Source: a virus | Taxonomy: Duplodnaviria > Heunggongvirae > Uroviricota > Caudoviricetes | Direction: 5' to 3' (one strand) | DNA length: 64,000 nt | IMG/VR virus record: IMGVR_UViG_3300026286_000004 | Shown: positions 970-64,000 of the stretch, piece by piece | Position numbering within the stretch: the stretch's first letter is position 1 | Layout: every line of letters starts with the position of its first letter | Program-made: the position numbers and the translations under genes | The notes under the pieces: generated by a model | What the model was told of the DNA's origin: nothing | Databases searched by the model: none | Seen by the model: the letters and a program-made list of their open reading frames with translations, nothing else

Positions 970-3900
970 ATGGCACGCGGCGGTATCAAGGACGTCCACT
1001 TCGACGTCACTCACCGGTGGGCGACGTCGATGGGGCGCGTCCACGACGGCGGGATCGTGCAGTCCTCTGACGGCGGTTCGACCTGGCTTTTTCGGTCCGT
1101 CCCGATGGGCCCGGTCGTTGATGCCCGGTCGCCGGCGGAATCCCTTCAGCCCGGCAGTCCGTTGATGCTCGCGTTCGACGAGCTGGCCGAACTCGCACCC
1201 CCGGCCCAGTTGAACCGGCGCCGGCTGGCGAAGTCCGGTTACCGCCGGATCCACTTGCTGCGGTTGCGGGTGCCGGCGAAGTATGTGCCGCCGGCGGAGT
1301 CGCAGCTGCGTGAGCACCTGTCGTCGACCTTCCACGACACGATGACGACCGCCTCCGTGCTGCTGATCGGGATCCAGTTGAAGGCGTCGGTGCGCCGGAC
1401 CGGCTGGCGCGACACGGCGGACGGGATCATTGCGTCCCTGACCGAGGGTGTCACTCCGGTCGGTGACTTCATGCGCGACGCCCGGCTGGTCGGCGACGCG
1501 ATGACGCGGTGCGGGCTGCAGGTGCCGACGGCGCAGCAGATGCAGCTGGCGAACTCGTGGTGGGCGGACTACGGCCAGCCGGACCCGCCGTACCTGATGC
1601 ACGCTGACCATCTGCACTCGTTCTCCTCGATGGAGGCGTTGCGGGCCGCCGCGAAGATCGGGCCGGACCGGTGCACCGACTGGGACAACATGCCCGGAAC
1701 GCACGCCCTCAGTTTCGCGACCGTTGCGGCGACGAACCTGTCGTACGTCCAAGCGGATAGCCCGTCCTCGCACTGGATGTCGGCGCTGCTGATGTCGGGT
1801 GCGCAGGCGATCTCGGTCCGCGGGCTGATCGAACCGCCGAAGGTGACCCGCGAGGAACTGCGGCGGATGCGCAAGGGCTACCAGGACGACATCCGGGAGC
1901 GCCTGAACGAGGGGAAGATGGAGCGCACCGAGCAGCTCGAGCTGGAACAGTCGCTGCAGGATGCGGAAGCCTTCTACGCCCAGGGCGGGACACCGACGCT
2001 GACGGACACCTCCGTCCTGGTCGCCTTTTCCGGCCGGCACCCGATCCACGGGTACGACCCGGTCCCGGTCGGGCAGCGTGCCGGGGTGACGCTCTACCCG
2101 ATGGTCAACCGGCAGCAAGAGGCATGGTCGGAGATGATGCCGTGCTCGAAGACGATGTCGAACCCGTATCTGCTGGACCTGCCGGCGCAGACGATCTCCT
2201 TCTCCGGCCTGCCGTCACTGTCGGTGGTCGGTGACAAGTCGGGAGCGCAGCCGGGATTCACCGAGACGGACAACCAGCCGGTCTTCATCGACCACATGGC
2301 GTCCGTCGACGAGGACACCCTCCCGATCGCGGTGATCGTGGGGCAGTCCGGGTCCGGTAAGGCGATGACGATTGACACGCGACTGCGGACGCCGTCCGGG
2401 TGGACGACGTTCGGCCTGGTCGATGTCGGCGACAAGGTCATCGGCTCGAACGGGCTGCCGTGCACGGTGCTGAACGTGACGACTCCGCAGGTCCGCGACG
2501 ACCTGCTCGAGGTCACCCTGAACGACGGCCAGTCGATGCGGGTCGACGGACAGCACCAGTTCGTCGCACGATTCCGCGGCTGGCCTGCCCGCGGGCTGCC
2601 GGAGCGGCTGGATGCGGCCAGCGGCCAGCTGGTCGAACTGGCCGAGTCGACCATCGACAAGGAGGTCGTGACCGCGCCGGCGCTGGCCCGGGAGTTGGCC
2701 GGCACGGGCGCAGGCGAGTTCTTCCCCTCCACGAACGCTGTCGCTGCGGCGCTGGCGATGATGGATGTCCGGCCGGGCACGCTCGGCCGGTACCGCAGAG
2801 CGGTCGCTCTGGCCGCCCTGGCAGCCCGGCTGAAGCAGCGTGCCAGCCATCCGGATGTCGCCGACGGCTGGATGGTCGTTTCGACGGCGGAGATGATCTC
2901 CACCGGTTCGGCGCAGCACTGGTCGCTGCCGTTGCCGGCCCCGGTCGCCGGCTCCGGGGAGAGCCTGGTTACCGATGCCCTTGCTGGGTGGCGCCCGTCG
3001 AAGGCGCTGCCGGAGCGGGTGATTTTCGCGCCAGTGGAGCAGCGCCGGGAACTGCTTCTGGACCTGATCCGCGGCCATGGGTCGATGCCGGGGGATTGCG
3101 AGTTCGCCGTGGCGGAGATGGCCGGCCTGTCCCCGGAAGGGGTCGAGTCGGTGCTGACGCTGGCCCGGTCGCTCGGGGTCTTCTCTGTCGAGGTCCCGTG
3201 GGGCGGTGGGGTCCGCCTCGCGATGACCGCGGACGGCTTCCCGGCCGTGTCATGCGTCGGGATCGAGACGATCGACGCGACCGGTGCGGACATCGTGTGC
3301 TGCATCGAGGTCGACTCGCCCGATTCGACGTTCCTGGTGGACGATCACGTGGTTACGCACAACACGCAGACGGCGCTCTTCTTGGCCGATCAGTACGCCC
3401 GGATGCGCACCAGCAGGGGCCAGCGCATCCCGATCGTGTTCGTCGACCCGAAGCTGGAGTCCAATCACTCCCGCACGGTCGCCCGGTCCGGCGGGACGGT
3501 CTTCTCGCTGGACCGGCTGATCACCTCCGACGGAGTGTTCGACCCGATCCGGTTCGCCAAGACGGCCGAGTCCGGGGCGTCCATGGCGGCCAGCATCATC
3601 CTCGAGGTCAACCCGTTCGGGTCGAAGATCGAGGACTACGAGACCGAGCTGATCCACTCGCTGAACTTCGGCGCCTCCAACGGGGCCCGGTGCACGATGG
3701 AAGCCCTGGCGATGGCTGAGACGGCCGGTCACGCATCCCGGGCGATGGTCGACCGGATCGAGAAGCTCGTTGCCGCGTCGACGTATTTCCGGGCGATGTG
3801 CGGCTCGGACCCGGAGGGTACCCCGCTGCAGGCGTCCGAGGGCATCACGTACATCATGCTCGGCTCGGCGCAGCTGAACTTGCCGGACCCGGACGCGAAG

Positions 3901-4491
3901 CACAAGGCCGACATCGGCCAGCGGACCGCGCTCGTGCTCGTCAAGGCGATGGTGTACGGCTCGATGATGGCGCTGGCCGGCCGGGAGGGCATCGTCATCC
4001 TGGACGAGGGCTGGATCTTCCTCGAGGCCGGCAAGTCCGAGGTCGTCCGTGCCGGGCGTCTGGCCCGGTCCTGGCAGGTGTGGCTGCTGCTGCTGACGCA
4101 GCGCGTCAAGGAGGTCGTGGACGCCGAGATCCAGCACTTCATCTCCCGCGGCGGGATCCTGCCGATGGAGGTGCAGTCGGAGGCGATCGCGGCGTGCCGG
4201 TTGTTCGGCCTGGAACCGACGGCGCAGCGACTGGAACGGATCACCGGGAAGGCGTCCCGCGCCGAGGGCGCATCGAACGCGCCGAACTGGAATTCGATGC
4301 GCGCGCTGCGTGACGACGACGGGAATGTGCTGCGTGGCTCGATCATGCTGTACTGCGACCAGAAGGGGCGCGCTGTCCCGGTCGAGGTGAAGATCCCACC
4401 GGCGTTCCTCGGGATCAGCTCGACGAGCCGGAAGGACATGCTCCGACGGGACAAGGCGTCCGCAGCAGTTCAGGATTCGTCCGCCGGTTAG
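970..4491 (+). CDS. VirB4/TrbE/TraC-family (conjugative T4SS-type) P-loop ATPase-like protein, interrupted by an intein
   Basis: 1173-aa ORF. Walker A GQSGSGK|T is split by an insertion at about residue 464. Walker B VILDEGW, then an LLLLTQ motif and an Arg-rich C-terminal domain. A ~460-aa N-terminal domain precedes the P-loop, as in VirB4-like ATPases. Confidence 0.6.
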   Translation: MARGGIKDVHFDVTHRWATSMGRVHDGGIVQSSDGGSTWLFRSVPMGPVVDARSPAESLQPGSPLMLAFDELAELAPPAQLNRRRLAKSGYRRIHLLRLRVPAKYVPPAESQLREHLSSTFHDTMTTASVLLIGIQLKASVRRTGWRDTADGIIASLTEGVTPVGDFMRDARLVGDAMTRCGLQVPTAQQMQLANSWWADYGQPDPPYLMHADHLHSFSSMEALRAAAKIGPDRCTDWDNMPGTHALSFATVAATNLSYVQADSPSSHWMSALLMSGAQAISVRGLIEPPKVTREELRRMRKGYQDDIRERLNEGKMERTEQLELEQSLQDAEAFYAQGGTPTLTDTSVLVAFSGRHPIHGYDPVPVGQRAGVTLYPMVNRQQEAWSEMMPCSKTMSNPYLLDLPAQTISFSGLPSLSVVGDKSGAQPGFTETDNQPVFIDHMASVDEDTLPIAVIVGQSGSGKAMTIDTRLRTPSGWTTFGLVDVGDKVIGSNGLPCTVLNVTTPQVRDDLLEVTLNDGQSMRVDGQHQFVARFRGWPARGLPERLDAASGQLVELAESTIDKEVVTAPALARELAGTGAGEFFPSTNAVAAALAMMDVRPGTLGRYRRAVALAALAARLKQRASHPDVADGWMVVSTAEMISTGSAQHWSLPLPAPVAGSGESLVTDALAGWRPSKALPERVIFAPVEQRRELLLDLIRGHGSMPGDCEFAVAEMAGLSPEGVESVLTLARSLGVFSVEVPWGGGVRLAMTADGFPAVSCVGIETIDATGADIVCCIEVDSPDSTFLVDDHVVTHNTQTALFLADQYARMRTSRGQRIPIVFVDPKLESNHSRTVARSGGTVFSLDRLITSDGVFDPIRFAKTAESGASMAASIILEVNPFGSKIEDYETELIHSLNFGASNGARCTMEALAMAETAGHASRAMVDRIEKLVAASTYFRAMCGSDPEGTPLQASEGITYIMLGSAQLNLPDPDAKHKADIGQRTALVLVKAMVYGSMMALAGREGIVILDEGWIFLEAGKSEVVRAGRLARSWQVWLLLLTQRVKEVVDAEIQHFISRGGILPMEVQSEAIAACRLFGLEPTAQRLERITGKASRAEGASNAPNWNSMRALRDDDGNVLRGSIMLYCDQKGRAVPVEVKIPPAFLGISSTSRKDMLRRDKASAAVQDSSAG
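2362..3363 (+). other. intein (334 aa) inserted between K and T of Walker A; class-3-like (Ala1, Cys in block F, Thr before the terminal HN); possible degenerate LAGLIDADG segment
   Basis: Block A is AMTIDTRLRTPSGW..VGDKV, block B is DGQHQF, block F is IVCCIEVD..STFLV and block G is DDHVVTHN followed by the +1 Thr. Excision restores GQSGSGKTQTALFL. The internal RRELLLDLIRGHGSM segment looks LAGLIDADG-like. Confidence 0.6.
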
Positions 4492-4526
4492 CGTGTTCAC
4501 CTCGTGCTCCCGCACTCATGTATGTC

Positions 4527-5657
4527 ATGAGTCTTGATCGCGTCATTCCCGCACGCCTTCCCGCAGCCCAGATCGACAACGAAGCCACCGCCATTGCCAG
4601 GGCGCACCAGAGCGGTGAGGTGGACTACGCCACGGCGATGACGTGGCTGAGCCGGCTCATCGTCCTGTCGACGATCCCGCACGAGGAGATGGTCACCCGC
4701 TTGCGCAGCGGGGCGTTGCGCAGGGAGGATGCCGTCACGGCTGAAGACCAGCTCCGGGACATGTTGTGCGACAAGCTCGATCCGACTCCGGGCGATACTC
4801 GGGTGAGGGCGGAGGTCGACTTCAAACTGCTGGCCGGCGGGTCGAGCTTTTCGGCGTGGATGCGCAGCTTCAGCGGCGCGCTGCTGGACCGCACGATCAT
4901 CCGTGGCGTGGGACGGTATCGCACCAAGAACATGCTGTCGCTGACAGGTTCGCTGGCGGATGCCGCCGGGTCGGACTATGTCACGGACGAGGACGCGGAG
5001 CGCGCCGACGACGAGTTGCATGTTCTCCACCGTCAACTGCGGGGCGCGAGCGAGGGGGCCAGCGTTATCGCGCGGTCGACGTCGTTGCTGCGGTACCGCC
5101 AGCTGCCGGAGCCGCGCCGCCCGGTTACGGAAGACGGCCGCCGGCAGGTGCGCGAGGCGATCAAGGCGGGCACGCTGGCGCAGTATCTGCGGTCCGGCCA
5201 CACCGGTCCGGTGCAGGATCTCTTTGCGGACTTCACGGCGGAGCAGGTTGGTGATCTGGACGCGTTGTCACTAGAACTGCTCGCAGAGTTGGCTATCACG
5301 CCGCTGCCGGCGATCTCTCGCACGGTCCAGCGGGAACTGGTCGCCTGGGCTGCTGCTCAGGTCCCGCGTGAGCACGCCGCGGCGGCTCGGGCCGTCACGG
5401 ATGCGTGGCTGACGCAGCGCACCGAGATCACGGGCGGCCGGGAAGGCCCGGTCGAGGTGAAGTCCGATCAGCAGCGGCTGCAGGAGCGCTCCGACTTCTG
5501 GACGGCGGCATCGGTGTTGCTGGATTCCTTCTGCTACGAGCTGGGGGAGACCATCGACGAGATCTCGACGGCCTTGCGGGAGCGGTACTTCACCATCGAG
5601 CGAGAGCGCTTCTTGAGCGCCCCGGAGGCGGCTCCGAGGAGTCAGACGACGGCCTGA
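4527..5657 (+). CDS. hypothetical protein
   Basis: Clean ORF with protein-like composition. A class-1 start motif (GCGTGTT-N18-TCATG-N6-ATG) precedes ATG 4527, and its first element overlaps the TAG stop of the upstream gene. Confidence 0.5.
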   Translation: MSLDRVIPARLPAAQIDNEATAIARAHQSGEVDYATAMTWLSRLIVLSTIPHEEMVTRLRSGALRREDAVTAEDQLRDMLCDKLDPTPGDTRVRAEVDFKLLAGGSSFSAWMRSFSGALLDRTIIRGVGRYRTKNMLSLTGSLADAAGSDYVTDEDAERADDELHVLHRQLRGASEGASVIARSTSLLRYRQLPEPRRPVTEDGRRQVREAIKAGTLAQYLRSGHTGPVQDLFADFTAEQVGDLDALSLELLAELAITPLPAISRTVQRELVAWAAAQVPREHAAAARAVTDAWLTQRTEITGGREGPVEVKSDQQRLQERSDFWTAASVLLDSFCYELGETIDEISTALRERYFTIERERFLSAPEAAPRSQTTA

Positions 5658-5778: not shown

Positions 5779-8700
5779 ATGGCAGCATCCGCCTCCCCGG
5801 CGACCCCCGGATTGACGATCAAGCGCATCCACACCACCGCGGGTGTTCACCCGTACGACGAGGTCGACTGGGAGGGCCGGGACGTCATCCAGACGAACCG
5901 GCGCACCGGCGAGACGATCTTCGACCAGCGTGGCGTGGAGTTCCCGACGTTCTGGTCGGAGAACTCATCGACGATCGCGGTCACGAAGTATTTCCGCGGC
6001 AAGCACGGCACCCCCGAGCGGGAGCACAGCCTCCGGCAGCTGATCGACCGGGTTGTGCTCACGTACGGCAAGGCGGGCCGCGAGCACGGCTACTTCGCCA
6101 CCGAGGATGACGCTGTCATCTTCGAGCACGAGCTGACGTACGCACTGCTGCACCAGATGTTCTCGTTCAACAGTCCGGTCTGGTTCAACGTCGGCACGAA
6201 GGCGAAGCAGGCCGTCTCGGCTTGCTTCATCCTGTCGGTCGCCGACTCGATGGAGTCGATCCTGAACTGGTACACCGAAGAGGGCATGATCTTCAAGGGC
6301 GGCTCGGGCGCCGGGGTGAACCTGTCCGCCATTCGCTCCTCCAAGGAGTTGCTCTCCTCCGGTGGCACGGCGTCCGGCCCGGTCTCGTTCATGCGTGGTG
6401 CGGACGCCTCCGCTGGCGGAATCAAGTCCGGTGGCGCGACCCGTCGTGCCGCCAAGATGGTCGTCCTCGACGTCGACCACCCCGACATCGTCGAGTTTGT
6501 CGAGACCAAGGCCCGCGAAGAGGACAAGATCCGCGCCCTGCGTGACGCCGGCTTCGACATGGACCTCGGCGGCAAGGACATCAACTCCGTCCAGTTCCAG
6601 AACGCCAACAACTCGGTCCGGGTCACGGACGAGTTCATGCGAGCCGTCGAGGCCGGGTCCGGCTTCGACTTGATCGCCCGCACCACCGGCGAGGTCGTCA
6701 AGTCCGTCGACGCCCGCGACCTGTGGCACCGGATCGCGAAGGCCGCGTGGGAGTGCGCCGACCCGGGCGTCCAGTACGACGGCACGATCCAGGACTGGCA
6801 CACCAACCCGGTCACCGGCCGGATCACCGCGTCCAACCCGTGTTGCTTCGTCGGGGACACCCTGGTGATGACCGGCGACGGGGATTACCGCACGATCCGC
6901 GGGATCACCGAGGATGTGGCCGCCGGGATCGACGTCGACGTCATGTCGTGGGATGCCGCCGAACGCTGCTTCACGATCAACCAGGTCAAGAAGGGCTGGG
7001 TCGCCGGCCGGACGAACAAGCTGGTCCGGCTGCGCACCTCCGCCGGGGCGGCAACCGTTTCGACGCCGGAGCACAAGCACATGCTCGTTGACGGCACCTG
7101 GGTGGAGGCGCAGGACCTGCTCTCCGGGATGCAGCTGCGGGCGCATGCCGACGAGATCGTCACGGTTGTCTCGGCGACGCTGTCCACGGACGGGCCTGAG
7201 GTCGACGTGTACGACCTCGAGGTCGAAGACACCCACACCTTCCTCGTCGGTGAACTGGGCCGCGACCCGGTCGTCGTGAGCAACAGCGAGTACATGTCCA
7301 TCGACAACAGCTCGTGCAACCTCGCGTCGATCAACCTGCTGAAGTTCCTGCGCGACGACGACACGTTCGATGCGCAGCGGTTCGCCGACCTGTGCGAGCT
7401 GGTCATCACCGCGATGGACATCTCGATCTGTTTCGCGGAGTTCCCGACGAAGGCGATCACGAAGAACACCCGCGACTATCGTCAGCTCGGCATCGGGTAC
7501 GCGAACCTCGGCGCGCTGCTGATGGCGACCGGGCACCCGTACGACTCCGACTCGGGCCGTCAGGTTGCGGCCAGCATCACGTCGCTGATGTCGGCTGCCT
7601 CGTACCGCCGGTCCGCGGAGCTGGCCGGCGTGTTCGGACCGTACGCCGGGTATAAGAAGAACACCGGCGCGCACCTGCGGGTCATCGGCAAGCATCACGC
7701 GGCGAACATCGACCTTCGGGTGACGGACGCCTTCGCCGCCCCGATCCACGACCTCGCGGGAGCCGAATGGGAGGCTGCGGAGCGTCTCGGCGTCCGTCAG
7801 GGCTTCCGGAACGCGCAGATTTCACTACTCGCGCCCACTGGCACGATCAGCTTCTTGATGAACTGCGACACGACCGGTATCGAGCCGGACTTCTCCCTGG
7901 TGAAGTTCAAGAAGCTCGTCGGCGGCGGGTCGATGAAGTTCGCGAACCTGACGATCCCGCGGGCGCTGCGCAAGCTCGGCTACGACGATGACACCGTGTC
8001 CGCGATCGTCGCGCACATCACCGAGCACGGCCACGTCCTGGACGCCCCCGGCTTGAAGACCGAGCACTACGCGATCTTCGACACCGCGATCGGGGCCCGG
8101 TCGATCTCCCCGATGGGCCACGTCAACATGATGGTTGCCTGCCAGCCGTTCCTCAGTGGCGCCATAAGCAAGACGATCAACCTTCCGGAGAGTGCGACCG
8201 TTGAAGATATCGAGGCCGTCTACATGGCCGGCTGGAAGCTGGGCCTGAAGGCTCTGGCGGTGTACCGGGACAACTGCAAGGTTGGTCAGCCGCTGTCCGA
8301 CGGAGCGGTCAAGCCGGTCGCTGTCGCTGACCCTGCGGCGCCCGCTGCAGCCGTCCCGGCGACGATCACGGCACCGGTCCCGGTCCGTGTTCGGCTGCCG
8401 CGCAAGCGGGTCAGTGAGACGACGTCGTTCACGGTCGGTGGGGCTGCCGGGTACTTGACGGCGGGCACCTATCCGGACGGTCGTATCGGGGAGTTGTTCA
8501 TGAAGTTCGGCAAGCAGGGCTCGACCCTGGCCGGCGTCATGGACTCGTTCTCGATCGCGATCTCCATCGCGCTGCAGTACGGGGTGCCGTTGGAGACGTT
8601 GGTGGAGAAGTTCACGAACACCCGGTTCGAGCCGGCCGGCCTGACAGACGACGCGGATATCCGGATAGCGCAGTCGCCGATGGACTACGTCTTCCGCCGG

Positions 8701-9033
8701 CTTGCTCTCGACCACATGGACTTCGAGACCCGGGCGTCGTATGGCATCTACACGGCAGCGGAGCGGGCCCGTCACCTCGAGACCGGGTCGTACGAGCCCG
8801 AGCTGGTCGAGGAGGAGATGGACGGATTGTCCGACGGCATCGGTGAAGACATGGTCCCGGCTCCGAAGCCGGCCCCGGCCGCGCTCCCGGCGCCGGTCCG
8901 CCATGACGCGCTGAACGAGGGCTTGCGCAAGTCCGAGGATGCCCCGCTGTGCTTCACCTGCGGGGTACGCATGGTGAGAGCTGGAAGTTGTTTCTCGTGC
9001 GAATCGTGCGGGGCGACGTCCGGTTGTAGCTAG
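5779..9033 (+). CDS. nrdJ: class II (adenosylcobalamin-dependent) ribonucleotide reductase NrdJ, intein-containing
   Basis: The N-terminal region and the NPC catalytic-cysteine motif are recognised from memory as NrdJ-like. The ORF carries a C-terminal CxxC..CxxC Zn ribbon and is 1084 aa including the intein. Confidence 0.85.
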   Translation: MAASASPATPGLTIKRIHTTAGVHPYDEVDWEGRDVIQTNRRTGETIFDQRGVEFPTFWSENSSTIAVTKYFRGKHGTPEREHSLRQLIDRVVLTYGKAGREHGYFATEDDAVIFEHELTYALLHQMFSFNSPVWFNVGTKAKQAVSACFILSVADSMESILNWYTEEGMIFKGGSGAGVNLSAIRSSKELLSSGGTASGPVSFMRGADASAGGIKSGGATRRAAKMVVLDVDHPDIVEFVETKAREEDKIRALRDAGFDMDLGGKDINSVQFQNANNSVRVTDEFMRAVEAGSGFDLIARTTGEVVKSVDARDLWHRIAKAAWECADPGVQYDGTIQDWHTNPVTGRITASNPCCFVGDTLVMTGDGDYRTIRGITEDVAAGIDVDVMSWDAAERCFTINQVKKGWVAGRTNKLVRLRTSAGAATVSTPEHKHMLVDGTWVEAQDLLSGMQLRAHADEIVTVVSATLSTDGPEVDVYDLEVEDTHTFLVGELGRDPVVVSNSEYMSIDNSSCNLASINLLKFLRDDDTFDAQRFADLCELVITAMDISICFAEFPTKAITKNTRDYRQLGIGYANLGALLMATGHPYDSDSGRQVAASITSLMSAASYRRSAELAGVFGPYAGYKKNTGAHLRVIGKHHAANIDLRVTDAFAAPIHDLAGAEWEAAERLGVRQGFRNAQISLLAPTGTISFLMNCDTTGIEPDFSLVKFKKLVGGGSMKFANLTIPRALRKLGYDDDTVSAIVAHITEHGHVLDAPGLKTEHYAIFDTAIGARSISPMGHVNMMVACQPFLSGAISKTINLPESATVEDIEAVYMAGWKLGLKALAVYRDNCKVGQPLSDGAVKPVAVADPAAPAAAVPATITAPVPVRVRLPRKRVSETTSFTVGGAAGYLTAGTYPDGRIGELFMKFGKQGSTLAGVMDSFSIAISIALQYGVPLETLVEKFTNTRFEPAGLTDDADIRIAQSPMDYVFRRLALDHMDFETRASYGIYTAAERARHLETGSYEPELVEEEMDGLSDGIGEDMVPAPKPAPAALPAPVRHDALNEGLRKSEDAPLCFTCGVRMVRAGSCFSCESCGATSGCS
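6844..7284 (+). other. mini-intein (147 aa, no endonuclease domain) inserted immediately after the catalytic Cys of NPC
   Basis: Sequence context is ASNPC|CFVGDTLVMTGDG...VYDLEVEDTHTFLVGELGRDPVVVSN|SEY. It has Cys1, a C-terminal Asn and a +1 Ser. The penultimate residue is Ser rather than His. Confidence 0.75.
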
Positions 9034-9563
9034 ACAGTTTGACCAGCACGGCAGGTTCGGGATGAACGTTTTCCCGGGCCTGCGGTGCTGTTTCTTGGGT
9101 CGGCTGCCGCATCGCTCTTGGCATGAACCATCGAACGGCAGATGACCCGGTCGGGGCAGTACCCGCTGTGGCTGGTGCCGCCGGACGACCAGTGCCCGAC
9201 GTACCGTCCGTCGGTGAAGCTGACCCTCGCCCGGCGCGTGGACGAGATGGTGCTGGCGACGCGGAACTGCGGCGAGAGGACGGTGCTGATCCTGCCTCCG
9301 GGCGGCTGCCACGCTCTCGGGGCTGCGCTGAGCCGGCTGGTGCGGACACGGTCACCGCTGCCGGTCTCTGCCTCGCTGGGGCGGTGTCACGGTGAAAGGT
9401 TTTCCCGTACGCCCATCAGGCTGCGGTGCCGGCGGTTCTGATCGACGCCCGGATCGCCCGGCTGGGCGGCCTGTTGCGGCGCCGGGTGCAGTTCGGGCTG
9501 ATCGAACTGCGCGATGCCTCGAGCATCTCGAGGAAATTGCTGAGCGCAGCCGGCTGAATCAAA

Positions 9564-9603
9564 CGAACAGGGTGCCGAGGATCTCTCCCCGGCACCCTGT
9601 TCG
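9564..9603. terminator. perfect 14-bp inverted repeat hairpin (cgaacagggtgccg / cggcaccctgttcg) with an 11-nt loop
   Basis: Seen directly in the sequence. It lies downstream of the small minus-strand ORF and shows no U-tract, as is usual in high-GC genomes. Confidence 0.4.
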
Positions 9604-9619
9604 GCGTGTGCTGAATCAG

Positions 9620-9684
9620 CCGTTGCGCCACTCCCAGTGGTCACCCTTGGTCACGGTGTTGCCGTTGCGCCACTCCCAGTGGTC
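9620..9684. repeat. two copies of a 23-bp direct repeat ccgttgcgccactcccagtggtc with a 19-bp spacer
   Basis: Exact copies at 9620-9642 and 9662-9684. Confidence 0.8.
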
Positions 9685-9763
9685 GGCCGCGGACAGACGC
9701 AGATGTCGCGCCGACGAAGACCGCGGTGGCCGCGAGCGTCACTGCTGCAATGCGACGAATCAT
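9641..9763 (-). CDS. possible small signal-peptide ORF (40 aa) preceded by an AGGGAG RBS
   Basis: Translates as MIRRIAAVTLAATAVFVGATSASV.., with RBS agggag 7 nt upstream. A Trp-rich repeat DHWEWRNG is encoded twice in the adjacent -1 frame. Confidence 0.2.
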   Translation of the reverse strand: MIRRIAAVTLAATAVFVGATSASVRGRPLGVAQRQHRDQG

Positions 9764-9899
9764 GTCGGCTCCCTGCTCTCTCGATTCCATGGGGTCGGTG
9801 CGTCAACATCCGGATTGATCACGCTCACGCTCCCCTGCTGAGATGTATGCGGCAAGGCACCTTGCCCCCGATGCGTAACGACCCTCTCTTACCGGAGTC

Positions 9900-10754
9900 A
9901 TGGATGGCATGACTGATCTCGTTGCACCTGGCGACCCGCGGCACGGCACGTACACGGGCTACAAGCAGCTTCGCTGTCGCTGCGAAGACTGCCGGGCAGC
10001 TCAGGCCCGGCGGTACCGGGAGAGGGTGCGCAAGGGCCTTCCGAAGAACGACCCGAAGCACGGGACGCTGACGGGGTACAACAACTACGGGTGCCGGTGC
10101 GAGCCCTGCTGCGAGGCGTATGCCGCGTACCGCCGCAAGAAGTTGTCCAACGGTCTTCCCGAGGGTGACTCGCGGCATGGGACGCTAACGGGGTACAACC
10201 ACTATGGGTGCCGGTGCGAGCCCTGCTGCGAGGCGGATGCCGCGCACCGCCGCAAGAAGATGTCCGGCGGCCTTCCCGAGGGTGACTCGCGGCATGGGAC
10301 GCTGACGGGGTACAACAAATACGGGTGCCGGTGCGATAAGTGCGGCGAAGCCCGTTCCGTGTACCGCCGCAAGAAGATGTCCGGCGGCCTTCCCGAGGGT
10401 GACTCGCGGCATGGGACGCTGACGGGGTACAGACACTATGGGTGCCGGTGCGAGCCCTGCTGCGAGGCGGATGCCGCGCACCGCCGCAAGAAGTTGTCCG
10501 GCGGCCTTCCCGAGGGCGATCCGCGGCACGGGACGCTGACGGGGTACAACCATCACGTATGCCGGTGCAAGCCCTGCTGCGAGGCGCTTGCCGCGTACCG
10601 CCGCAAGAAGGCGTCCGGCGGCCTTCCGAAGAACGACCCGAAGCACGGGACGACGACGGGGTACGACAACTACGGGTGCCGGTGCGAGTCCTGTCGTCGA
10701 GGGTATGCCGCGTACCGGCGAGAACGCAGGCAACGGCCTGACCCCGCCGCCTGA
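9900..10754 (+). CDS. Cys-rich tandem-repeat protein: seven 40-aa repeats, each with an [28 protein letters not shown] motif (putative Zn-binding or DNA-binding module)
   Basis: Seven near-identical 120-bp DNA repeats. Each unit is P(E/K)(G/N)D(S/P)(R/K)[20 protein letters not shown](D/Y)AA(H/Y)RRKK(L/M)SGGL. Class-1 promoter motif upstream at 9873-9911. Confidence 0.7.
9945..10735 (+). repeat. seven ~120-bp near-identical tandem direct repeats (coding)
   Basis: Seen directly. Shadow ORFs on the opposite strand (9898..11013, 10185..10733) are artefacts of this repeat. Confidence 0.85.
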
Positions 10755-10767
10755 CCGGCTGTCTCCG

Positions 10768-10783
10768 GCAAAGAGGGAGTATG
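10768..10783 (+). promoter_or_regulatory. class-2 start element GGCAAAGAG-N5-ATG (thyA)
   Basis: One of 9 copies. The others lie before starts at 13033, 20746, 25599, 31913, 38212, 43021 and 60520(-), plus an orphan at 5690. Confidence 0.55.
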
Positions 10784-11572
10784 CGACAGTACCTCGACCT
10801 GATGCAACGAGTCCTCGACGAGGGTGTGGAGCGCCCGGACCGCACCGGCACGGGCACGCTCGGGGTCTTCGGCCACCAGATGCGCTTCGACCTCGCCGAC
10901 GGGTTCCCCGTCGTGACCACCAAGAAGCTGCACCTGCGCTCGATCATCGGTGAGCTGCTGTGGTTCCTGCGCGGCGACACGAACGTGGCGTGGCTGAACG
11001 AGCGCGGCATCACGATCTGGGACGAGTGGGCCGACGAGAACGGCGACCTCGGGCCGGTATACGGCTACCAGTGGAGATCGTGGCCGGCACCGGATGGCCG
11101 CAGCATCGACCAGATCGCGGACGTGATCGCCTCGATCCGGTCCAACCCGAACGGCCGCCGGCATGTCGTGTCCGCATGGAACCCGGCCGACGTCGACAAG
11201 CAGGCCCTGCCGCCGTGTCACGCACTGTTCCAATTCCACGTTGCGGACGGACGCCTGTCGTGCCAGCTGTACCAGCGGTCTGCGGACATCTTCCTCGGTG
11301 TCCCGTTCAATATCGCCTCGTATGCCCTGCTCACCCACCTCGTCGCCCAGCAGACCGGGCTTGAGGTCGGCGACTTCGTGCACACCCTCGGCGATGCCCA
11401 CCTCTATCTCAACCACCTCGATCAGGCCCGCGAGCAGCTGGCCCGCGAGCCCTTCCCGCTGCCGACCCTGCGATTGACGCCGCGGGAGTCCATCGACGCC
11501 TACGAGTTGGAGGACGTCGAGCTGGTCGGCTACCAGGCGCACCCGTCGATCAAGGCGCCGATCGCGGTATGA
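10781..11572 (+). CDS. thyA: thymidylate synthase ThyA
   Basis: [38 protein letters not shown]..., ending PIAV. Confidence 0.9.
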
Positions 11573-11630
11573 GCACGTGGTGGAGCCGGTGCCAAGACCG
11601 GACCGTGAAGTCAACCGTGGGGATGGCAGC

Positions 11631-12872
11631 ATGATCACCTTGATCGCGGCGGTCGCGCAGAACCGGGTGATCGGGAACGGGCCACAGATCCCGTGGCGGG
11701 TACCGGGGGAGCAGGAGCATTTCCGGGACACCACGATGGGCCACGCCGTCATCATGGGCCGGGCCACGTTCGACTCTATCGGCCGGGGGCTGCCGGGCCG
11801 GCGCGTCATCGTCGTCACGCGCGCACCGATCGTTTCCCATCCGGACGTCGAGACCGCGTCGAGCCTGGATGACGCGATCGCGTTGGCCGGGGCCGGCACG
11901 GAGATTTTCATCGCCGGCGGCGGGCAGCTCTACGAGGCGGCGATGCCGTACGCGGATCGGTTGATCCTGTCGGAGATTCCGCTGGCGCCGGACGGCGACG
12001 TGCTGTTCCCGGAGTTCACGCTGTTCGACGGCCGGGATCTGCTGACCCGTCCAAGCCTCGATGCGTGGGTGGAGACCAGCCGCGCCGACCACTGGTCCTT
12101 TCAGGTGGTCACGTACGCCCGCCCGGTGCCCGTGCACGACCCGGACGCCCCGGTCCTGGTCGCCGGCGACTGGCACGGCGAGGTTAGGCTGGCGGTGGCT
12201 GCGGTCCAGGCCGCGAAGGGGCGCGGGATCGACCTGATCCTGCACACGGGCGATTTCGGGATCTGGCGCGGCGACGAGTTCTTTCTCGACGCCCTGCAAC
12301 GCGAGCTGGAGGCTGCCGGCGTCCAGTTGTGGTTCGTCGATGGCAACCATGAGGACTTCGAGCGGTTGTACGCCTATGCGCCGGACCCGGATGGCCGCCG
12401 CCGGGTGCGCCGGTCGGTGTGGCATCTGCCGCGCGGGCACCGGTTCGCCGCGGCCGGCCGGTCGTGGCTGGCGTGCGGCGGGGCGGCGTCGATCGACCGA
12501 TCGTTCCGGACCCCGGTTCTCAACTGGTGGCCGCAGGAGACGATCACGCAGGCGGATCTACACCGGTGCGCCATCGGCGGCCGCGTTGATGCCCTGCTTG
12601 TCCACGAGGCCCCGGATGAGTCGCCGACGTTGCGGGCCGCGTATGCCAGCCCGTCGCAGTGGCCGGAGTCCGGACTGGCCGAGTCGGAGCAGTCGCGCCG
12701 GATGATCTCGGCGCTGGTCGCGGCGACCGGGCCGCGGTTCCTCTTCCACGGTCACCATCACCTGCGGTACGTCGACGTCCTCGACGAGTTGACGATCACA
12801 GGCCTCGGGACGCTCCCGAGCGACAACCTGGCCGTCTTCGACGGCGAGACGATCGAGCTGCTCGGACCGTGA
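11631..12872 (+). CDS. folA: dihydrofolate reductase (N-terminal ~165 aa) fused in frame to a calcineurin-like metallophosphoesterase domain
   Basis: DHFR N-terminus MITLIAAVAQNRVIGNGPQIPWRVPGEQEHF. Phosphoesterase motifs follow from about residue 175: GDWHGE, TGDFG, VDGNHE, FHGHHH. The ATG at 11631 has a GGGGATGG RBS-like upstream sequence and sits 59 nt after the thyA stop. Confidence 0.8.
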   Translation: MITLIAAVAQNRVIGNGPQIPWRVPGEQEHFRDTTMGHAVIMGRATFDSIGRGLPGRRVIVVTRAPIVSHPDVETASSLDDAIALAGAGTEIFIAGGGQLYEAAMPYADRLILSEIPLAPDGDVLFPEFTLFDGRDLLTRPSLDAWVETSRADHWSFQVVTYARPVPVHDPDAPVLVAGDWHGEVRLAVAAVQAAKGRGIDLILHTGDFGIWRGDEFFLDALQRELEAAGVQLWFVDGNHEDFERLYAYAPDPDGRRRVRRSVWHLPRGHRFAAAGRSWLACGGAASIDRSFRTPVLNWWPQETITQADLHRCAIGGRVDALLVHEAPDESPTLRAAYASPSQWPESGLAESEQSRRMISALVAATGPRFLFHGHHHLRYVDVLDELTITGLGTLPSDNLAVFDGETIELLGP

Positions 12873-51939: not shown

Positions 51940-53103
51940 TCACGCGACCGCAAGGATGACCTTTCCAAGTTCGTCGCGCATCCGCTGCGGGATGGCCGCG
52001 TCCTGCGGCTTCATCGCGAGCAGCGAACGGACGGCGGGGACGACAACATCCTTGCGGCCAGCGGCGATAGCGGAGTCGCACACGTCGATGGCGGCGTTCC
52101 AGCGGTTCAGCGTTGGGTTGTGGCCCATCAGGGCGACGATGGCCTGGGTGAGGGCGAACAGGACGTCCGGTGTGTCGGTCGTCCACTTCACGAGCGACGG
52201 GTCCGCGAGGACCGCTTCGGGGTCGTACAGGCCGCGGGCCTTGAACCACTGGAAGAACATCTTGCCCTCGCCTTCTCCGACGCACCCGTTGATCACGAGC
52301 ATCAGGGTGGGGGCGTCGCCACGGCGGACGTAGCGCAGCATCTTCTGCAGGTTGTCCCATGACCGGGGCGACGGCCAGGCACCGGAGGACTTGTCCGCGT
52401 CGGCCGGGCAGCCGGGGTCGATTTTGGACGGGTTGTGTTGGAGATAGCCGACAACGGCTGACGCATTGGCGAGCTGCTCCGCCTCGGTCGGGTTGCCGGT
52501 CAACTGCTCCAATGACGGGACGATCTCGTTGGCGAACCCGGACAGGACACCGTTCAGCCACGCCTCGCGGTCGAACTGCCACTTGCAGTGCCAGAAGCGG
52601 TTCGCTGTCGCGGGAGCCAGTTCCTGGCCGTTCACGGCGGACTCGGGCGGGTTCATCGCCGCGACCATCGAGACCGTCTTGGGGAGCTGGAAGTCGCCCG
52701 CGCACCGTTCCTGGATCACGCGGAGCATCCCGGCCTGCGTGGACGGCGGGACGGTGGTCAACTCGTCGAAGAAGATGGTCGCCTTCGGGGCGGCCGCGGC
52801 CCGGATCGCGAACGCCGGGACGGTGTTGACCGTGGTCGGCTGCGCGACCACGTCGCCGTTCGGCATTGTCGTGACATCGGAGATCACGGGCAGGCCGGAA
52901 AAGTCGACCGCCTCCCGGATCGAGCCGATCATCGTTTCCAGGTGACGGCCCCACGCGGCCGACCACTTGGTCAGCTGGGCGGTCTTGCCGATGCCCGGGT
53001 CGCCGATGAAGGCGGCGGGCACGTCCGCGAGGACGGCTGCGGCATACGCGCGCAGCATTGGTGTTCCGGGCAGGTTTTTCAGGTTCTCACTCATGCCCCA
53101 CAT
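51940..53103 (-). CDS. MoxR-like AAA+ ATPase
   Basis: Walker A GDPGIGKT and Walker B IFFDELT. Minus-strand class-1 motif GCGTAACGACGTGCGATCACCGGCGTCATGTGGGGCATG. The alternative start is 53094. Confidence 0.7.
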   Translation of the reverse strand: MWGMSENLKNLPGTPMLRAYAAAVLADVPAAFIGDPGIGKTAQLTKWSAAWGRHLETMIGSIREAVDFSGLPVISDVTTMPNGDVVAQPTTVNTVPAFAIRAAAAPKATIFFDELTTVPPSTQAGMLRVIQERCAGDFQLPKTVSMVAAMNPPESAVNGQELAPATANRFWHCKWQFDREAWLNGVLSGFANEIVPSLEQLTGNPTEAEQLANASAVVGYLQHNPSKIDPGCPADADKSSGAWPSPRSWDNLQKMLRYVRRGDAPTLMLVINGCVGEGEGKMFFQWFKARGLYDPEAVLADPSLVKWTTDTPDVLFALTQAIVALMGHNPTLNRWNAAIDVCDSAIAAGRKDVVVPAVRSLLAMKPQDAAIPQRMRDELGKVILAVA

Positions 53104-60573: not shown

Positions 60574-61212
60574 ATGACGACCCCGTTCAACGAGAGCGAT
60601 CATCCGCGCGGAGCAGGTGGGCAGTTCGCGCCGAAGGCTCGCTCGGAGCAGGCCCGGCTGGACGCTCCATACGGCGACGGGCACCCGTGGAACCAGGATG
60701 CGGAGCAACGGGAACGGTTGGAGGTCGAGCTGGCTGGGCAGATCGCCGCGTTCCCGCATTTCGTGGCCGACCCGCGAGCGTGCGCCGCGCGCATCTTCCA
60801 GATCGTCGCCGTGTACCGCGGTGTCCCATCCGAGGTCGCCGAAGCCGCGACACCGGATGCCGTGGCGGCAGCCAGCCGCGGCGGGCCGTCCGGCGAGGGG
60901 ATGTACCGGGCGATGCTTCCGGTGATCGACGCCGCCCAGGCCCGCGAGTACGCCCCGAAACCGCAGCCGGACCGGATCCCCGACGTCCCGACGCTGAGAG
61001 AAGTCGAAGCCGCGAAGGCGTACCTGGATGCGCTGGAGCCGGTCCGGCAGATGTACCGGCCCGACTGGGAGCGGAGGAACGGCGGGTACGGGCCGACCGT
61101 CGCGCAAGTTCGCACACATGCCCATGAACGCTCCTTACAGGATGACCGGATCCGTGCCGCGAAAGTCGAGTACGACCGGCTGAAGGCGGCCTACGACGCC
61201 GCGAACGGCTAG
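60574..61212 (+). CDS. family-X N-terminal module protein (213 aa)
   Basis: N-terminus MTTPFNESDHPRGAGGQFAPKARSEQARLD. Promoter variant CCGCACACATACTGGGCATGACGACC. Confidence 0.55.
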   Translation: MTTPFNESDHPRGAGGQFAPKARSEQARLDAPYGDGHPWNQDAEQRERLEVELAGQIAAFPHFVADPRACAARIFQIVAVYRGVPSEVAEAATPDAVAAASRGGPSGEGMYRAMLPVIDAAQAREYAPKPQPDRIPDVPTLREVEAAKAYLDALEPVRQMYRPDWERRNGGYGPTVAQVRTHAHERSLQDDRIRAAKVEYDRLKAAYDAANG

Positions 61213-62489
61213 CTGTCGAACACGACCAGGTACCGCAGCGCAACCTGGTCGATCGGGGTGATGACTTCCTGGTTGAGGACGTTGCACGTTCCCGCCCGGA
61301 CGTGGATCGAGTCGAACCGGCGGCCCTTGGTGTCGCTGACCTTGCCGCGCAGGATGTCGTCCCACACGTACTGGCCTTTGCGGTCCGGGAGGCACTCGTT
61401 GCCCATGATCACGTCGGCGCTGAACATGAACCACTGCCGGTCGACCCCGGACGACCAAACCCCGCCCGCGGCATACCCAGCCGCCTTCGTCGACGTTTCG
61501 GACGTGTACACGCAGTTGTAGCCGCCGAACATGTTGCCGGCCAGGCCGACGGTCGAGATCGACCCGCGCGGCACGAACCCGGTCGTCAGGATCGACAGCA
61601 CGTTGTGGTTTCGGGTGCCGTGCCAGTTGCGCTGGACGTTCCCTAGCTTCGCGGCGAGGGCGTCGAACTGGTCGGCCTTACGGGTGTCGGTGATCTCGTA
61701 CGCGCCGACGAGCTTCGCGCCTGTGACGCGCGCCGAATGCTGGGCTTTCACGGTCGAGGTGAACCGTCGGCCCAGGTCATCCATGACCTTCCCGTCGCTG
61801 ACGGGTGCCAGGCGGTACCGGAACAGCGCCAGCGGGTCGATGTCAGCGCCGGCTTCCTCCTTGACCAGCCCGACCTGCACGGAGGCACGCAACCGGTCGA
61901 GGAAATCAGCTTGTGCCGCAACCTGATCGGGCGTGACCAGGAAGTCCTCATGCCAGCCGCGGCGCGCACCGACCTGCTGCGGGATCAGCCGCAGGTACCG
62001 TTCCAGGTTCTCGATGCGGGCGCTGCCGGTCAGCTTCGGCAGTTCGTTCAGCAGCACCGCAGCCTCATCGATCGTGCGGGTCGTGACCAGCCCGAGCGGA
62101 GTGGTGACCTGCCCGTCCCGGACAGTCATCCGTCCGCCGGAGATGTTCGCGATCTGGTGGGCGTTCGAGGCGACCAGCCGGTCGATCAGGGCGACCACGG
62201 ACGGGTCGGACACGGACGCAAGACCCTCGCGCGCCAACGATTTCAGGGGTGTGTCGTCGCTGGTTTTCGCCGCGTGCGCGGTGACCGTCTTGACTTCGCT
62301 GTACCCTTCGCGCGTCTTGGACCGCACGAGCCGGTCGAACGTGTGCTGCCCGCCGGGATACGGCTTGGTCCGGCCAGTGTTCCCGACTCGCCCCCAACGG
62401 GCGTGCACCGTATCGCCGTCGAGGCGCAGGTGGTAGAACTTGTTGTTGTTCTCCTGCGTGTTGACCTTCACGAGCATGATCTCGCTCAT
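61209..62489 (-). CDS. PARP-like ADP-ribosyltransferase (WGR domain, helical domain, ART domain with an H-Y-E triad)
   Basis: WGR motif NKFYHLRLDGDTVHARWGRVGNTG. Catalytic motifs NWHGTRNHNVLSILTTGF, GNMFGG..STKAAGYA and LNQEVIT. GGGAGAGAAG RBS before M17. Confidence 0.7.
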   Translation of the reverse strand: MSEIMLVKVNTQENNNKFYHLRLDGDTVHARWGRVGNTGRTKPYPGGQHTFDRLVRSKTREGYSEVKTVTAHAAKTSDDTPLKSLAREGLASVSDPSVVALIDRLVASNAHQIANISGGRMTVRDGQVTTPLGLVTTRTIDEAAVLLNELPKLTGSARIENLERYLRLIPQQVGARRGWHEDFLVTPDQVAAQADFLDRLRASVQVGLVKEEAGADIDPLALFRYRLAPVSDGKVMDDLGRRFTSTVKAQHSARVTGAKLVGAYEITDTRKADQFDALAAKLGNVQRNWHGTRNHNVLSILTTGFVPRGSISTVGLAGNMFGGYNCVYTSETSTKAAGYAAGGVWSSGVDRQWFMFSADVIMGNECLPDRKGQYVWDDILRGKVSDTKGRRFDSIHVRAGTCNVLNQEVITPIDQVALRYLVVFDS

Positions 62490-62583
62490 CGCTTCTTCTC
62501 TCCCGAAAGCACTTGTGCTGCAAGGTTTCGCAGCCACCGGGCGGTGTCACTCAGGCCGTCGCGGAAAGCCTGCGCGGCAGCCC

Positions 62584-63060: not shown

Positions 63061-64000
63061 TTACGCAGCAGTCGATTTCGTCAATTCCTCGCGATCCACG
63101 ACGACCGTTTTGATCCACTCCGGCAGCGGGCAGCACCACGGGCTCTCAACGTTGTCGGTGACGACGACGGCGACCACCGGAATGTCGTTGATCATCTTGT
63201 TGGGCCAGCCCGTCCCGCCGTCCGTCGCGCAGATCACGACATGCGGTCGCGGCTTGAGGTTGCACGCCTGCTCGATGGCGCGGGCCATGTCAGTGCCACC
63301 GCGCCCGGTGACCTGCTCCATCGTCTTGCGGCCCTGGTACTTCTTCACGTCGTAGATGTGCGTGTCGGCGTCCACGACCCGGAAGTCATCGCCCCTGATG
63401 CCCATCCGCTTCGCAATCGCCTCGCACTCACGGGACACGGCGGCGAGGTCTGCCTGCCCCATCGACCCGGAGGTGTCCCGGATCAGGATGATCTGTGGGA
63501 CGGGGCGGACCAGGCCACGGTTCGGTGACTTCCGGTCGCCGAGCATCGTGTACTGGCGGCGACGGTTGGGACGCTGGAACGTCGTGTCGTCATACCCGGA
63601 GCGCCACGCCTTCGCGCGACGGATCGTCTTGCCGAGCACCGTCTGCCACGGCACCTTCGACGGACTCATGTGCTCCTTCGCGGTCCCCAGCAGACCGGCC
63701 GGGACGTTGCCGATGCCCTTGCCCTGATGGTCGAGGATGTTCACCGCGGTGTCGAGAATCGTCGCTTCGATCTCGACCGGAGACACGCCCTGGACCGGAT
63801 TCTCGCCGTCATCGCTGCCGGGAACCGGCATGCCTCCTGCCCCCTGCCCGCAGCCGCTGAACGTGACTTCCTGGCCGCAGTCCGGGCAGCACTGGCCCTG
63901 CTGACCGCCCTGGCCCTGCTGACCACCCTGACCGCCCTGGCCCTGCTGACCACCCTGACCGCCCTGACCGCCCTGGCCCTGCTGACCGCCCTGACCGCCC
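63061..64000 (-). CDS. von Willebrand factor A (vWA/MIDAS) domain protein; frame open to the window edge through a Gly/Gln-rich repeat and CPDCG
   Basis: MIDAS motif LIRDTSGSMG, plus GGTD and ATDGG. M at 63831 is the only internal start. Upstream in frame lies (GGQ/GQQ)n..QCCPDCGQEVTFSGCG. Confidence 0.6.
   Translation of the reverse strand, partial: GGQGGQQGQGGQGGQGGQQGQGGQGGQQGQGGQQGQCCPDCGQEVTFSGCGQGAGGMPVPGSDDGENPVQGVSPVEIEATILDTAVNILDHQGKGIGNVPAGLLGTAKEHMSPSKVPWQTVLGKTIRRAKAWRSGYDDTTFQRPNRRRQYTMLGDRKSPNRGLVRPVPQIILIRDTSGSMGQADLAAVSRECEAIAKRMGIRGDDFRVVDADTHIYDVKKYQGRKTMEQVTGRGGTDMARAIEQACNLKPRPHVVICATDGGTGWPNKMINDIPVVAVVVTDNVESPWCCPLPEWIKTVVVDREELTKSTAA

Follow-up and report, generated by a model that had tools for sequence, protein, structure and literature searches.

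Organization of the array gene

The stretch of DNA analyzed here (hereinafter the window) comprises 64,000 nucleotides of the IMG/VR virus record IMGVR_UViG_3300026286_000004 and has a GC content of 68%. Between the nrdJ and thyA genes of this window, after a poorly coding gap of 867 bp that follows nrdJ, lies an intact open reading frame (ORF; positions 9900-10754, hereinafter the array gene) that encodes a 284-aa protein built of tandem copies of a small Cys-containing module (Table 1). The GC content at the third codon positions of this ORF (0.83) is typical of the genes in the window, the neighbors of the array gene included. The protein consists of a 14-aa leader and seven head-to-tail units, each opening with HGT, which together fill the ORF, in agreement with an initial annotation made from the sequence alone, according to which the array accounts for essentially the whole protein. 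The same annotation described seven near-identical 120-bp repeats that encode a 40-aa module; the seven tandem units are indeed there, but the period is 117 bp, or 39 aa, both in the HGT-anchored units and in the Tandem Repeats Finder (TRF) output, with a final unit of 36 aa followed by the stop codon, and near-identity is limited to units 2-6.

In the TRF analysis, the array (10058-10717, period 117, 5.6 copies, 84% matches, score 903) outscores every other tandem repeat of the window by a wide margin, and a direct-repeat search recovered six in-register copies with a spacing of exactly 117 nt; no second copy of the module is present elsewhere in the window. Units 2-6 are 77-94% identical to one another at the nucleotide level and 64-92% identical at the amino acid level, whereas units 1 and 7 are old and diverged, with 46-66% nucleotide and 41-57% amino acid identity to all other units. 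The five inner units are recent internal duplicates. Within the array, stretches of 69, 60 and 33 bp are repeated exactly and in direct orientation at offsets of 117, 234 and 585 bp, that is, one, two and five units, respectively, and the array hence is recombination-prone. The 33-bp repeat places an identical sequence at the junction of units 1 and 2 (10035-10067) and at that of units 6 and 7 (10620-10652), which suggests that the array originally had about three units and then expanded internally. The five inner units and the long exact repeats agree with the earlier description of the array as recently expanded and slippage-prone.

The exact repeats of 60-69 bp could mislead short-read assemblers, and no second assembly of the locus was found in the collections searched, so that the number of units might in principle be an assembly artefact, the real gene having fewer or more of them. 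There is only a very remote chance that this is the case. Any two units differ at 7 or more of the 117 nucleotides and, accordingly, each unit junction is unique; the reading frame and the scaffold residues are preserved across all junctions; the usual artefact at such loci is collapse, not expansion; and homologs with 6-8 modules exist.

Table 1. Coordinates of the array units and of other features of the window
Feature	Position	Strand	Remarks
VirB4-like AAA_10 ATPase	970-4491	+	insertion at protein residues ~455-545, right after Walker A (GQSGSGK, then AMTIDTRLRTPSGW...)
nrdJ, class II ribonucleotide reductase, with mini-intein	5779-9033	+	upstream neighbor
Small ORF with signal peptide	9564-9790	-	MIRRIAAVTLAATAVFVGATSASV...; inside the 867-bp gap
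Array ORF	9900-10754	+	14-aa leader and seven His-Cys3 modules
Unit 1, old and diverged	9942-10058	+	57-65% nt identity to units 2-6; last 24 nt within the 33-bp exact repeat
Unit 2, young	10059-10175	+	
Unit 3, young	10176-10292	+	94% nt identical to unit 5
Unit 4, young	10293-10409	+	three Cys only (CRCDKCGEA)
Unit 5, young	10410-10526	+	
Unit 6, young, most diverged of the inner five	10527-10643	+	linker GLPKNDPK, same as after unit 1
Unit 7, old and diverged, with C-terminal tail	10644-10751	+	three Cys; stop codon 10752-10754
thyA	10781-11572	+	downstream neighbor; starts 26 nt past the array stop
Dihydrofolate reductase-metallophosphoesterase (calcineurin-like) fusion	11577-12872	+	same operon direction
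AAA_5 (MoxR-like) ATPase	51940-53103	-	
PARP catalytic and WGR protein	61209-62537	-	
DUF2201 VWA-like/metallopeptidase protein	63061-63831	-	
Repeat with 9-, 27- and 36-nt periods	63901-64000		CTGACCGCC...; minus strand reads GGQGGQQGQGGQ...; continues past the window end

A His-Cys3 module conserved in a large family

All seven units share the signature H-G-T-x2-G-Y-x4-C-R-C-x2-C (spacing H-x10-CxCxxC), with an Ala after the third Cys in units 1-6 that is replaced by Gly in unit 7. A hidden Markov model (HMM) built from the seven window units alone detected 808 modules in 243 homologs, among which each of the three Cys residues is conserved at 100%, the His at 93%, the Gly at 95%, the Tyr at 93%, the Arg between the Cys residues at 93%, and the Ala at 82%. 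The recurrence of the module in homologs with the same Cys spacing, anticipated in the initial annotation, is thereby established. The family core, H-G-(T)-x2-G-Y-x3/4-C-R-C-x2-C-x2-A, is found in the array units, with the Gly-for-Ala change in unit 7. The initial annotation had assigned to each unit a cluster of four Cys, CxC-x2-CC; however, the fourth Cys is confined to units 2, 3, 5 and 6, and the residue that follows the third Cys is R, K or T, not Cys, across the 808 family modules. The conserved set of candidate ligands is therefore His and three Cys, not four Cys (hereinafter the His-Cys3 module), and this invariant set is compatible with a structural metal site.

The initial search for homologs of the array protein yielded 217 sequences. 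Among 1.84 billion proteins, a profile of two-unit segments matched representatives of 10,643 clusters (50% identity) with a threshold of E <= 1e-3, and of 4,089 clusters with E <= 1e-10. Among the PHROG families, phrog_14857 ('HTH DNA binding protein') matches the array at E = 1.1e-40, and four further families, labeled integrase, HNH endonuclease or unknown, match at E <= 1e-19, in each case over 6-7 stretches; the families that contain the module are PHROGs 14857, 24671, 34332, 38041 and 4234, and also 23251 ('HNH endonuclease'). Mycobacterium phage Doug gp48, Spartacus gp48 and Rhodococcus phage ReqiPepy6 gp60/61 have the module in common with the array protein, with tblastn identities of 34-50%. 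The array protein belongs to an existing, uncharacterized family that PHROGs and phage annotators list as 'HTH DNA binding protein'; unusual for this family are its recent five-fold internal duplication and its maximal length. The phage PHROG proteins contain two or three old, diverged modules and often an additional C-terminal domain, whereas the array protein consists of seven modules, five of them recent, and nothing else; the functional names of the phage proteins are annotation only.

Neither Pfam nor NCBIfam includes a model for the module. The array protein scored 27.8 bits, above the 22-bit cut-off, with the Pfam family Cytotoxic (PF09000, colicin E3-type ribonuclease), but the match covers only profile positions 31-56 of 80 and corresponds to a linker plus HGTLTGY (aa 117-142), with the score inflated by the near-identical repeats; we rejected this candidate along with FAS_AT_central and the MBL-fold equivalogs, which match short repeat-amplified stretches (MBL with 19 bits versus cut-offs above 350). 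The array protein has no match to the nuclease domains PF01844, PF13392, PF14279 and PF02945, to the NUMOD families PF07453, PF07460 and PF07463, to the zf-C2H2 families of Pfam, to the PADLOC models of defense systems or, in a PDB sequence search, to any chain; Pfam WhiB (PF02467) is not matched even at E <= 10. A search for relatives close enough to compare copy number, which may vary between isolates as the initial annotation proposed, found none with more than 48% identity among 5.8 billion proteins; the plasmid collection and the species-representative genomes contained no match to the array protein, the phage collection yielded weak module matches only, and the viral contigs yielded two weak loci. 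A literature search on the module motif and on modular zinc domains of actinophage nucleases returned no description of this module.

Predicted fold of the units

AlphaFold modeled a two-unit segment with a pLDDT of 92.5 from an alignment of 82 rows, and the full-length array protein with a pLDDT of 90 and a pTM of 0.62. In the model, each of the seven units consists of a short helix of 5-7 residues (TGYNN), a loop that carries C-R-C and a helix of 16-17 residues that starts near the third Cys and has a basic RRKK stretch at its end, without any beta strands. Given the residue invariance and the helix-loop-helix model, each module is predicted to bind one structural metal ion, most likely Zn, through the His and the three Cys. 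A Foldseek search of the model against PDB retrieved nothing at E < 1, whereas all matches in BFVD were actinophage proteins with this module (probability 1.0), indicating that the phage PHROG proteins and the array protein have the same predicted fold. The array protein as a whole is basic (pI 9.4), with 57 Lys and Arg residues (20%), 25 Cys and 13 His.

The succession of tandem, putatively metal-stabilized modules joined by a conserved linker (GLPEGDxR here, TGEKP there), with recent duplication of units and with changes concentrated in a handful of positions close to the recognition helix, is reminiscent of the C2H2 zinc finger arrays of KRAB-ZNF proteins and PRDM9. However, the order of the ligands in C2H2 fingers is C-x2-4-C-x12-H-x3-5-H versus H-x10-CxCxxC in the array protein, and the C2H2 fold is beta-beta-alpha versus the predicted all-alpha units, so the resemblance is one of analogy, not homology.

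Sequence evolution of the young units

Among units 2-6, 17 of the 39 residue positions vary, and none of these is among the 10 scaffold positions that are conserved in the family (hypergeometric P = 0.001). At the nucleotide level, 2 of the 30 sites in scaffold codons segregate, compared to 35 of the 87 sites elsewhere (Fisher p = 5e-4), and both changes in scaffold codons are synonymous third-position substitutions. Because the changes that followed the duplications avoid the scaffold codons, the fold is under selection. The pN/pS ratio among these units is 0.42-0.91 in pairwise comparisons and 0.72 when pooled; taken with the distribution of changes, this indicates that the fold is constrained whereas selection elsewhere in the unit appears relaxed, not demonstrably positive. 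Apart from the linker, the variable positions cluster at 7-10, 14-17 and 20-23, that is, around the putative metal site and at the start of the long helix, and these are likely to be the positions that determine specificity.

Domain architectures and genomic placement of the relatives

The homologs contain 1-8 modules, most commonly 3 and in some cases 6-8, so that the seven modules of the array protein are near the upper end of the range. The maximum identity between modules is 0.94 in the array protein, compared to a median maximum of 0.42 across 239 relatives, only one of which reaches 0.8 or more. Among the 150 top members of the family, Endonuclease_7 is present in 17, HNH in 9 and a helix-turn-helix (HTH) domain in about 10, WhiB and sigma-70 region 4 are each present in a single protein, and about 70% have no Pfam domain and consist of modules only; in all, about 18% of the top members are fused to a His-Me finger nuclease. 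The module can be N-terminal or C-terminal to its partner domain or stand alone. The initial annotation tentatively compared the signature of the units to a short Cys motif at the N-termini of actinobacterial and actinophage DNA-binding proteins. In so far as the module is conserved in actinophages and actinobacteria, in proteins that are annotated as DNA-acting or fused to DNA-acting domains, this comparison was apt, but the module is not specifically N-terminal.

The NUMOD and IENR domains of the HNH and GIY-YIG homing endonucleases, such as I-TevI and I-HmuI, are, as is well established (see also PMC2988022), likewise about 30-40 aa long, occur in variable tandem numbers on His-Me finger nucleases and provide for extended, asymmetric target recognition. 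In some homologs, exemplified by P0060 from the first homolog search, a NUMOD4/HNH_3 core is followed by two His-Cys3 modules, which here replace the NUMOD/IENR modules C-terminal to the core; NUMOD4 itself is a separate domain that is present in some homologs only. The two kinds of module show no sequence relationship, and the invariant His-Cys3 site and the confinement to phages and mobile elements of Actinomycetota are features of the His-Cys3 module only. The fusions to HNH, EndoVII, NUMOD4 and HTH domains, together with the pI of 9.4, lead us to infer that the module binds DNA in a sequence-specific manner.

It is conceivable that the modules recognize not double-stranded DNA but RNA, DNA in single-stranded or branched form, or a partner protein, or that the protein buffers metal or carries a redox cluster in the manner of WhiB. 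The 25 Cys and 13 His residues in 284 aa would be compatible with such roles, small Cys/His knuckles frequently bind single-stranded nucleic acids, the endonuclease VII partners act on branched DNA, and WhiB domains co-occur with the module. Similarly to the array protein, the WhiB-like (Wbl) Fe-S factors are Cys-rich and occur in the same actinobacterial hosts and phages, and some proteins contain both domains; however, the Wbl factors possess a four-Cys Fe-S motif whereas the array units have just three conserved Cys and a His and do not match PF02467, and in the proteins where the two co-occur (P0012 and P0074), WhiB is a separate domain and the module a C-terminal addition. Furthermore, the partners of the module are overwhelmingly DNA-targeting nucleases and HTH domains, and the regular helical repeat, which is modeled with confidence, has basic helices, as would suit binding to a duplex. 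We therefore regard these other ligands and roles as highly unlikely.

On phage contigs, the genes in which the module is fused to endonuclease VII each stand isolated, flanked by gaps, in long runs of small genes of the other strand; judging by gene order, they are placed as typical free-standing homing endonuclease genes. On the contigs L079 (4001-4630 and 7416-8234) and L078 (4001-4585), such genes are the sole plus-strand genes in long minus-strand runs, the two on L079 being within 4 kb. Array-only proteins are also encoded in early regulatory regions: the gene for the array-only protein gp48 of Mycobacterium phage Doug is located directly after cro and antirepressor genes. The viral contig L001 encodes, near a DNA polymerase I gene, two adjacent small paralogs (8013-8264, 83 aa, and 8521-8778, 85 aa), each with two modules separated by a longer spacer. 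The module is absent from 1.25 Mb of actinomycete chromosomal loci that had been fetched for another purpose, and hence it appears to be a feature of mobile elements.

Genomic context and the nature of the element

There is no terminator between the array gene and thyA, which has its own ribosome-binding site (AGAGGGAG), and the array gene is probably co-transcribed with thyA. The next gene in this direction encodes a dihydrofolate reductase-phosphoesterase fusion; many genomes of Streptosporangiaceae and of other actinomycetes encode stand-alone homologs of its phosphoesterase half, with 35-50% identity. The scan of species-representative genomes did not recover the fusion itself and yielded only chromosomal homologs with 35-53% identity, without the module. 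Within the 867-bp gap, out of frame by one with the small minus-strand ORF, the sequence reads AADHWEWRNGNTVTKGDHWEWRNG* (two copies of DHWEWRNG), as a result of a 35-nt direct repeat (9619-9653 and 9661-9695), and a strong terminator with an 18-bp stem (9603-9564) belongs to the same ORF, which resembles a gene for a small secreted peptide with repeats, either frameshifted or mis-sequenced.

The nrdJ mini-intein comprises about 150 aa (protein residues ~355-505, CFVGDTLV...VVSNS), matches the Pfam domains PT-HINT and Intein_splicing and contains no homing endonuclease domain. The insertion in the P-loop of the AAA_10 ATPase matches intein-bearing 'terminase large subunit' PHROGs and is probably a second intein. 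Inteins, introns and free-standing homing endonucleases classically land in the genes for ribonucleotide reductase (RNR) and thymidylate synthase (PMC2988022; PMC1865063; bioRxiv 10.1101/2025.01.02.630785): in phage T4, td, nrdB and nrdD are targets of homing elements (PMC2988022, PMC1865063), and so are the RNR and thymidylate synthase genes of actinophages (bioRxiv 10.1101/2025.01.02.630785).

In such surroundings, the array gene might derive from a free-standing homing endonuclease gene that landed between nrdJ and thyA, lost its HNH or EndoVII domain and is now decaying or domesticated, in which case the modules would be a leftover targeting domain without a function of its own or would merely protect the former target site. 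Indeed, about 18% of the top family members are nuclease fusions and the nuclease-fused genes are positioned as homing endonuclease genes are, the array gene follows a poorly coding gap among genes of nucleotide metabolism, and nrdJ and, likely, the AAA_10 ATPase gene carry inteins. Nevertheless, this scenario is unlikely. The ORF is intact, the scaffold residues are kept in all seven units, with the changes avoiding scaffold codons, and recent growth from about 3 to 7 units is unlike a decaying gene. Free-standing HNH and endonuclease VII homing endonucleases possess a His-Me finger (beta-beta-alpha-metal) domain that the array protein lacks, and no nuclease remnant is evident nearby: the 26 nt before thyA are too short for one, and the ORF at 9142-9441 upstream of the array gene has no PHROG match. 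Finally, the prevalence of array-only proteins implies that the nuclease-less state is normal for the family.

The rest of the window encodes, among others, a 1,538-aa FtsK/TrwB-like protein, an IrrE/ArdC-like metalloprotease, an NAD-dependent ligase, and RecG-like and DinG-like helicases. Considering the VirB4-like and FtsK/TrwB-like ATPases, the element looks like a conjugative plasmid or an integrative and conjugative element (ICE) of a high-GC actinobacterium. A tailed-phage origin was considered as well, but the window contains no tRNAs and no recognizable virion genes, and these ATPases appear to point elsewhere. The collections of phages, plasmids, viruses and species-representative genomes yielded no close relative of the element, and a scan for close relatives via the neighboring protein encoded at 4518-5657 gave nothing; with regard to the position of the array gene between nrdJ and thyA, no related element was found in which its presence or absence could be compared. 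No PADLOC model matched the PARP-WGR protein, the AAA_5 ATPase or the DUF2201 protein that are encoded on the same element; the window terminates within a short-period repeat (Table 1).

Proposed function of the array protein

The reading that we favor, with a probability of about 60%, is that the array protein is a nuclease-free, stand-alone array of seven metal-stabilized modules for sequence-specific DNA binding, which share ancestry with the modules that target the His-Me finger nucleases of actinophages, and that this array has expanded recently, retains its fold under selection and acts by occupancy. Under this model, each 39-aa unit would fold into a short helix, the C-R-C loop and a basic helix of 16-17 residues, pinned together by one metal ion, most likely Zn, with the His before helix 1, the two loop Cys and the Cys that opens helix 2 as the putative ligands. 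The conserved GLPEGD(S/P)R linkers would string the units together such that the protein lies along an extended DNA site. Judging from the domain architectures, the same module would be the targeting part of actinophage HNH and endonuclease VII homing-type nucleases. With no catalytic domain, the array protein would work by occupying its site, either as a regulator or as a site-blocker. The gene and thyA-folA are probably co-expressed, on a conjugative plasmid- or ICE-like element of a high-GC actinobacterium. The five units appear to have been duplicated recently and then to have diverged mainly at positions 7-10, 14-17 and 20-23, the likely determinants of specificity.

Several observations weigh against this interpretation. 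The case for DNA binding comes solely from the fusion partners and the charge of the protein, and the geometry of the His/Cys metal site is a presumed one. Nothing convincing was found in the window that would qualify as a repeated DNA target (iterons). Positive selection among the units is not shown by pN/pS values of 0.42-0.91, and the putative specificity positions therefore may just be less constrained. Lastly, the collections searched yielded no ortholog of the array gene against which its conservation could be judged.

A bolder extension of the occupancy model would be that the His-Cys3 module is a hitherto unrecognized, programmable DNA-recognition code of actinobacterial mobile elements, with one module per few base pairs, and that the array of this element has just been extended and re-targeted through duplication of units and changes at positions 7-10, 14-17 and 20-23. 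Support for this idea does not go beyond analogy, and it is distinctly unlikely; if true, the module would be the prokaryotic equivalent of zinc-finger or TALE arrays.

Implications

The locus itself is modest, apparently an accessory DNA-binding gene in the nrdJ-thyA interval, within an intein-rich region of selfish elements. It nonetheless belongs to a family that exceeds 10,000 clusters (50% identity) and for which we found no Pfam or NCBIfam model, solved structure, PDB fold match or literature and whose members annotators now label vaguely as 'HTH DNA binding'. The module appears to direct numerous HNH and endonuclease VII homing-type nucleases of actinophages, as well as small early-region proteins, to their targets. 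The array offers a natural experiment, in that the differences among its five near-identical units mark positions that are tolerant and possibly determine specificity. Defining this family would improve the annotation of thousands of genes of phages and mobile elements and could reveal a compact, modular, metal-stabilized DNA-reading unit.
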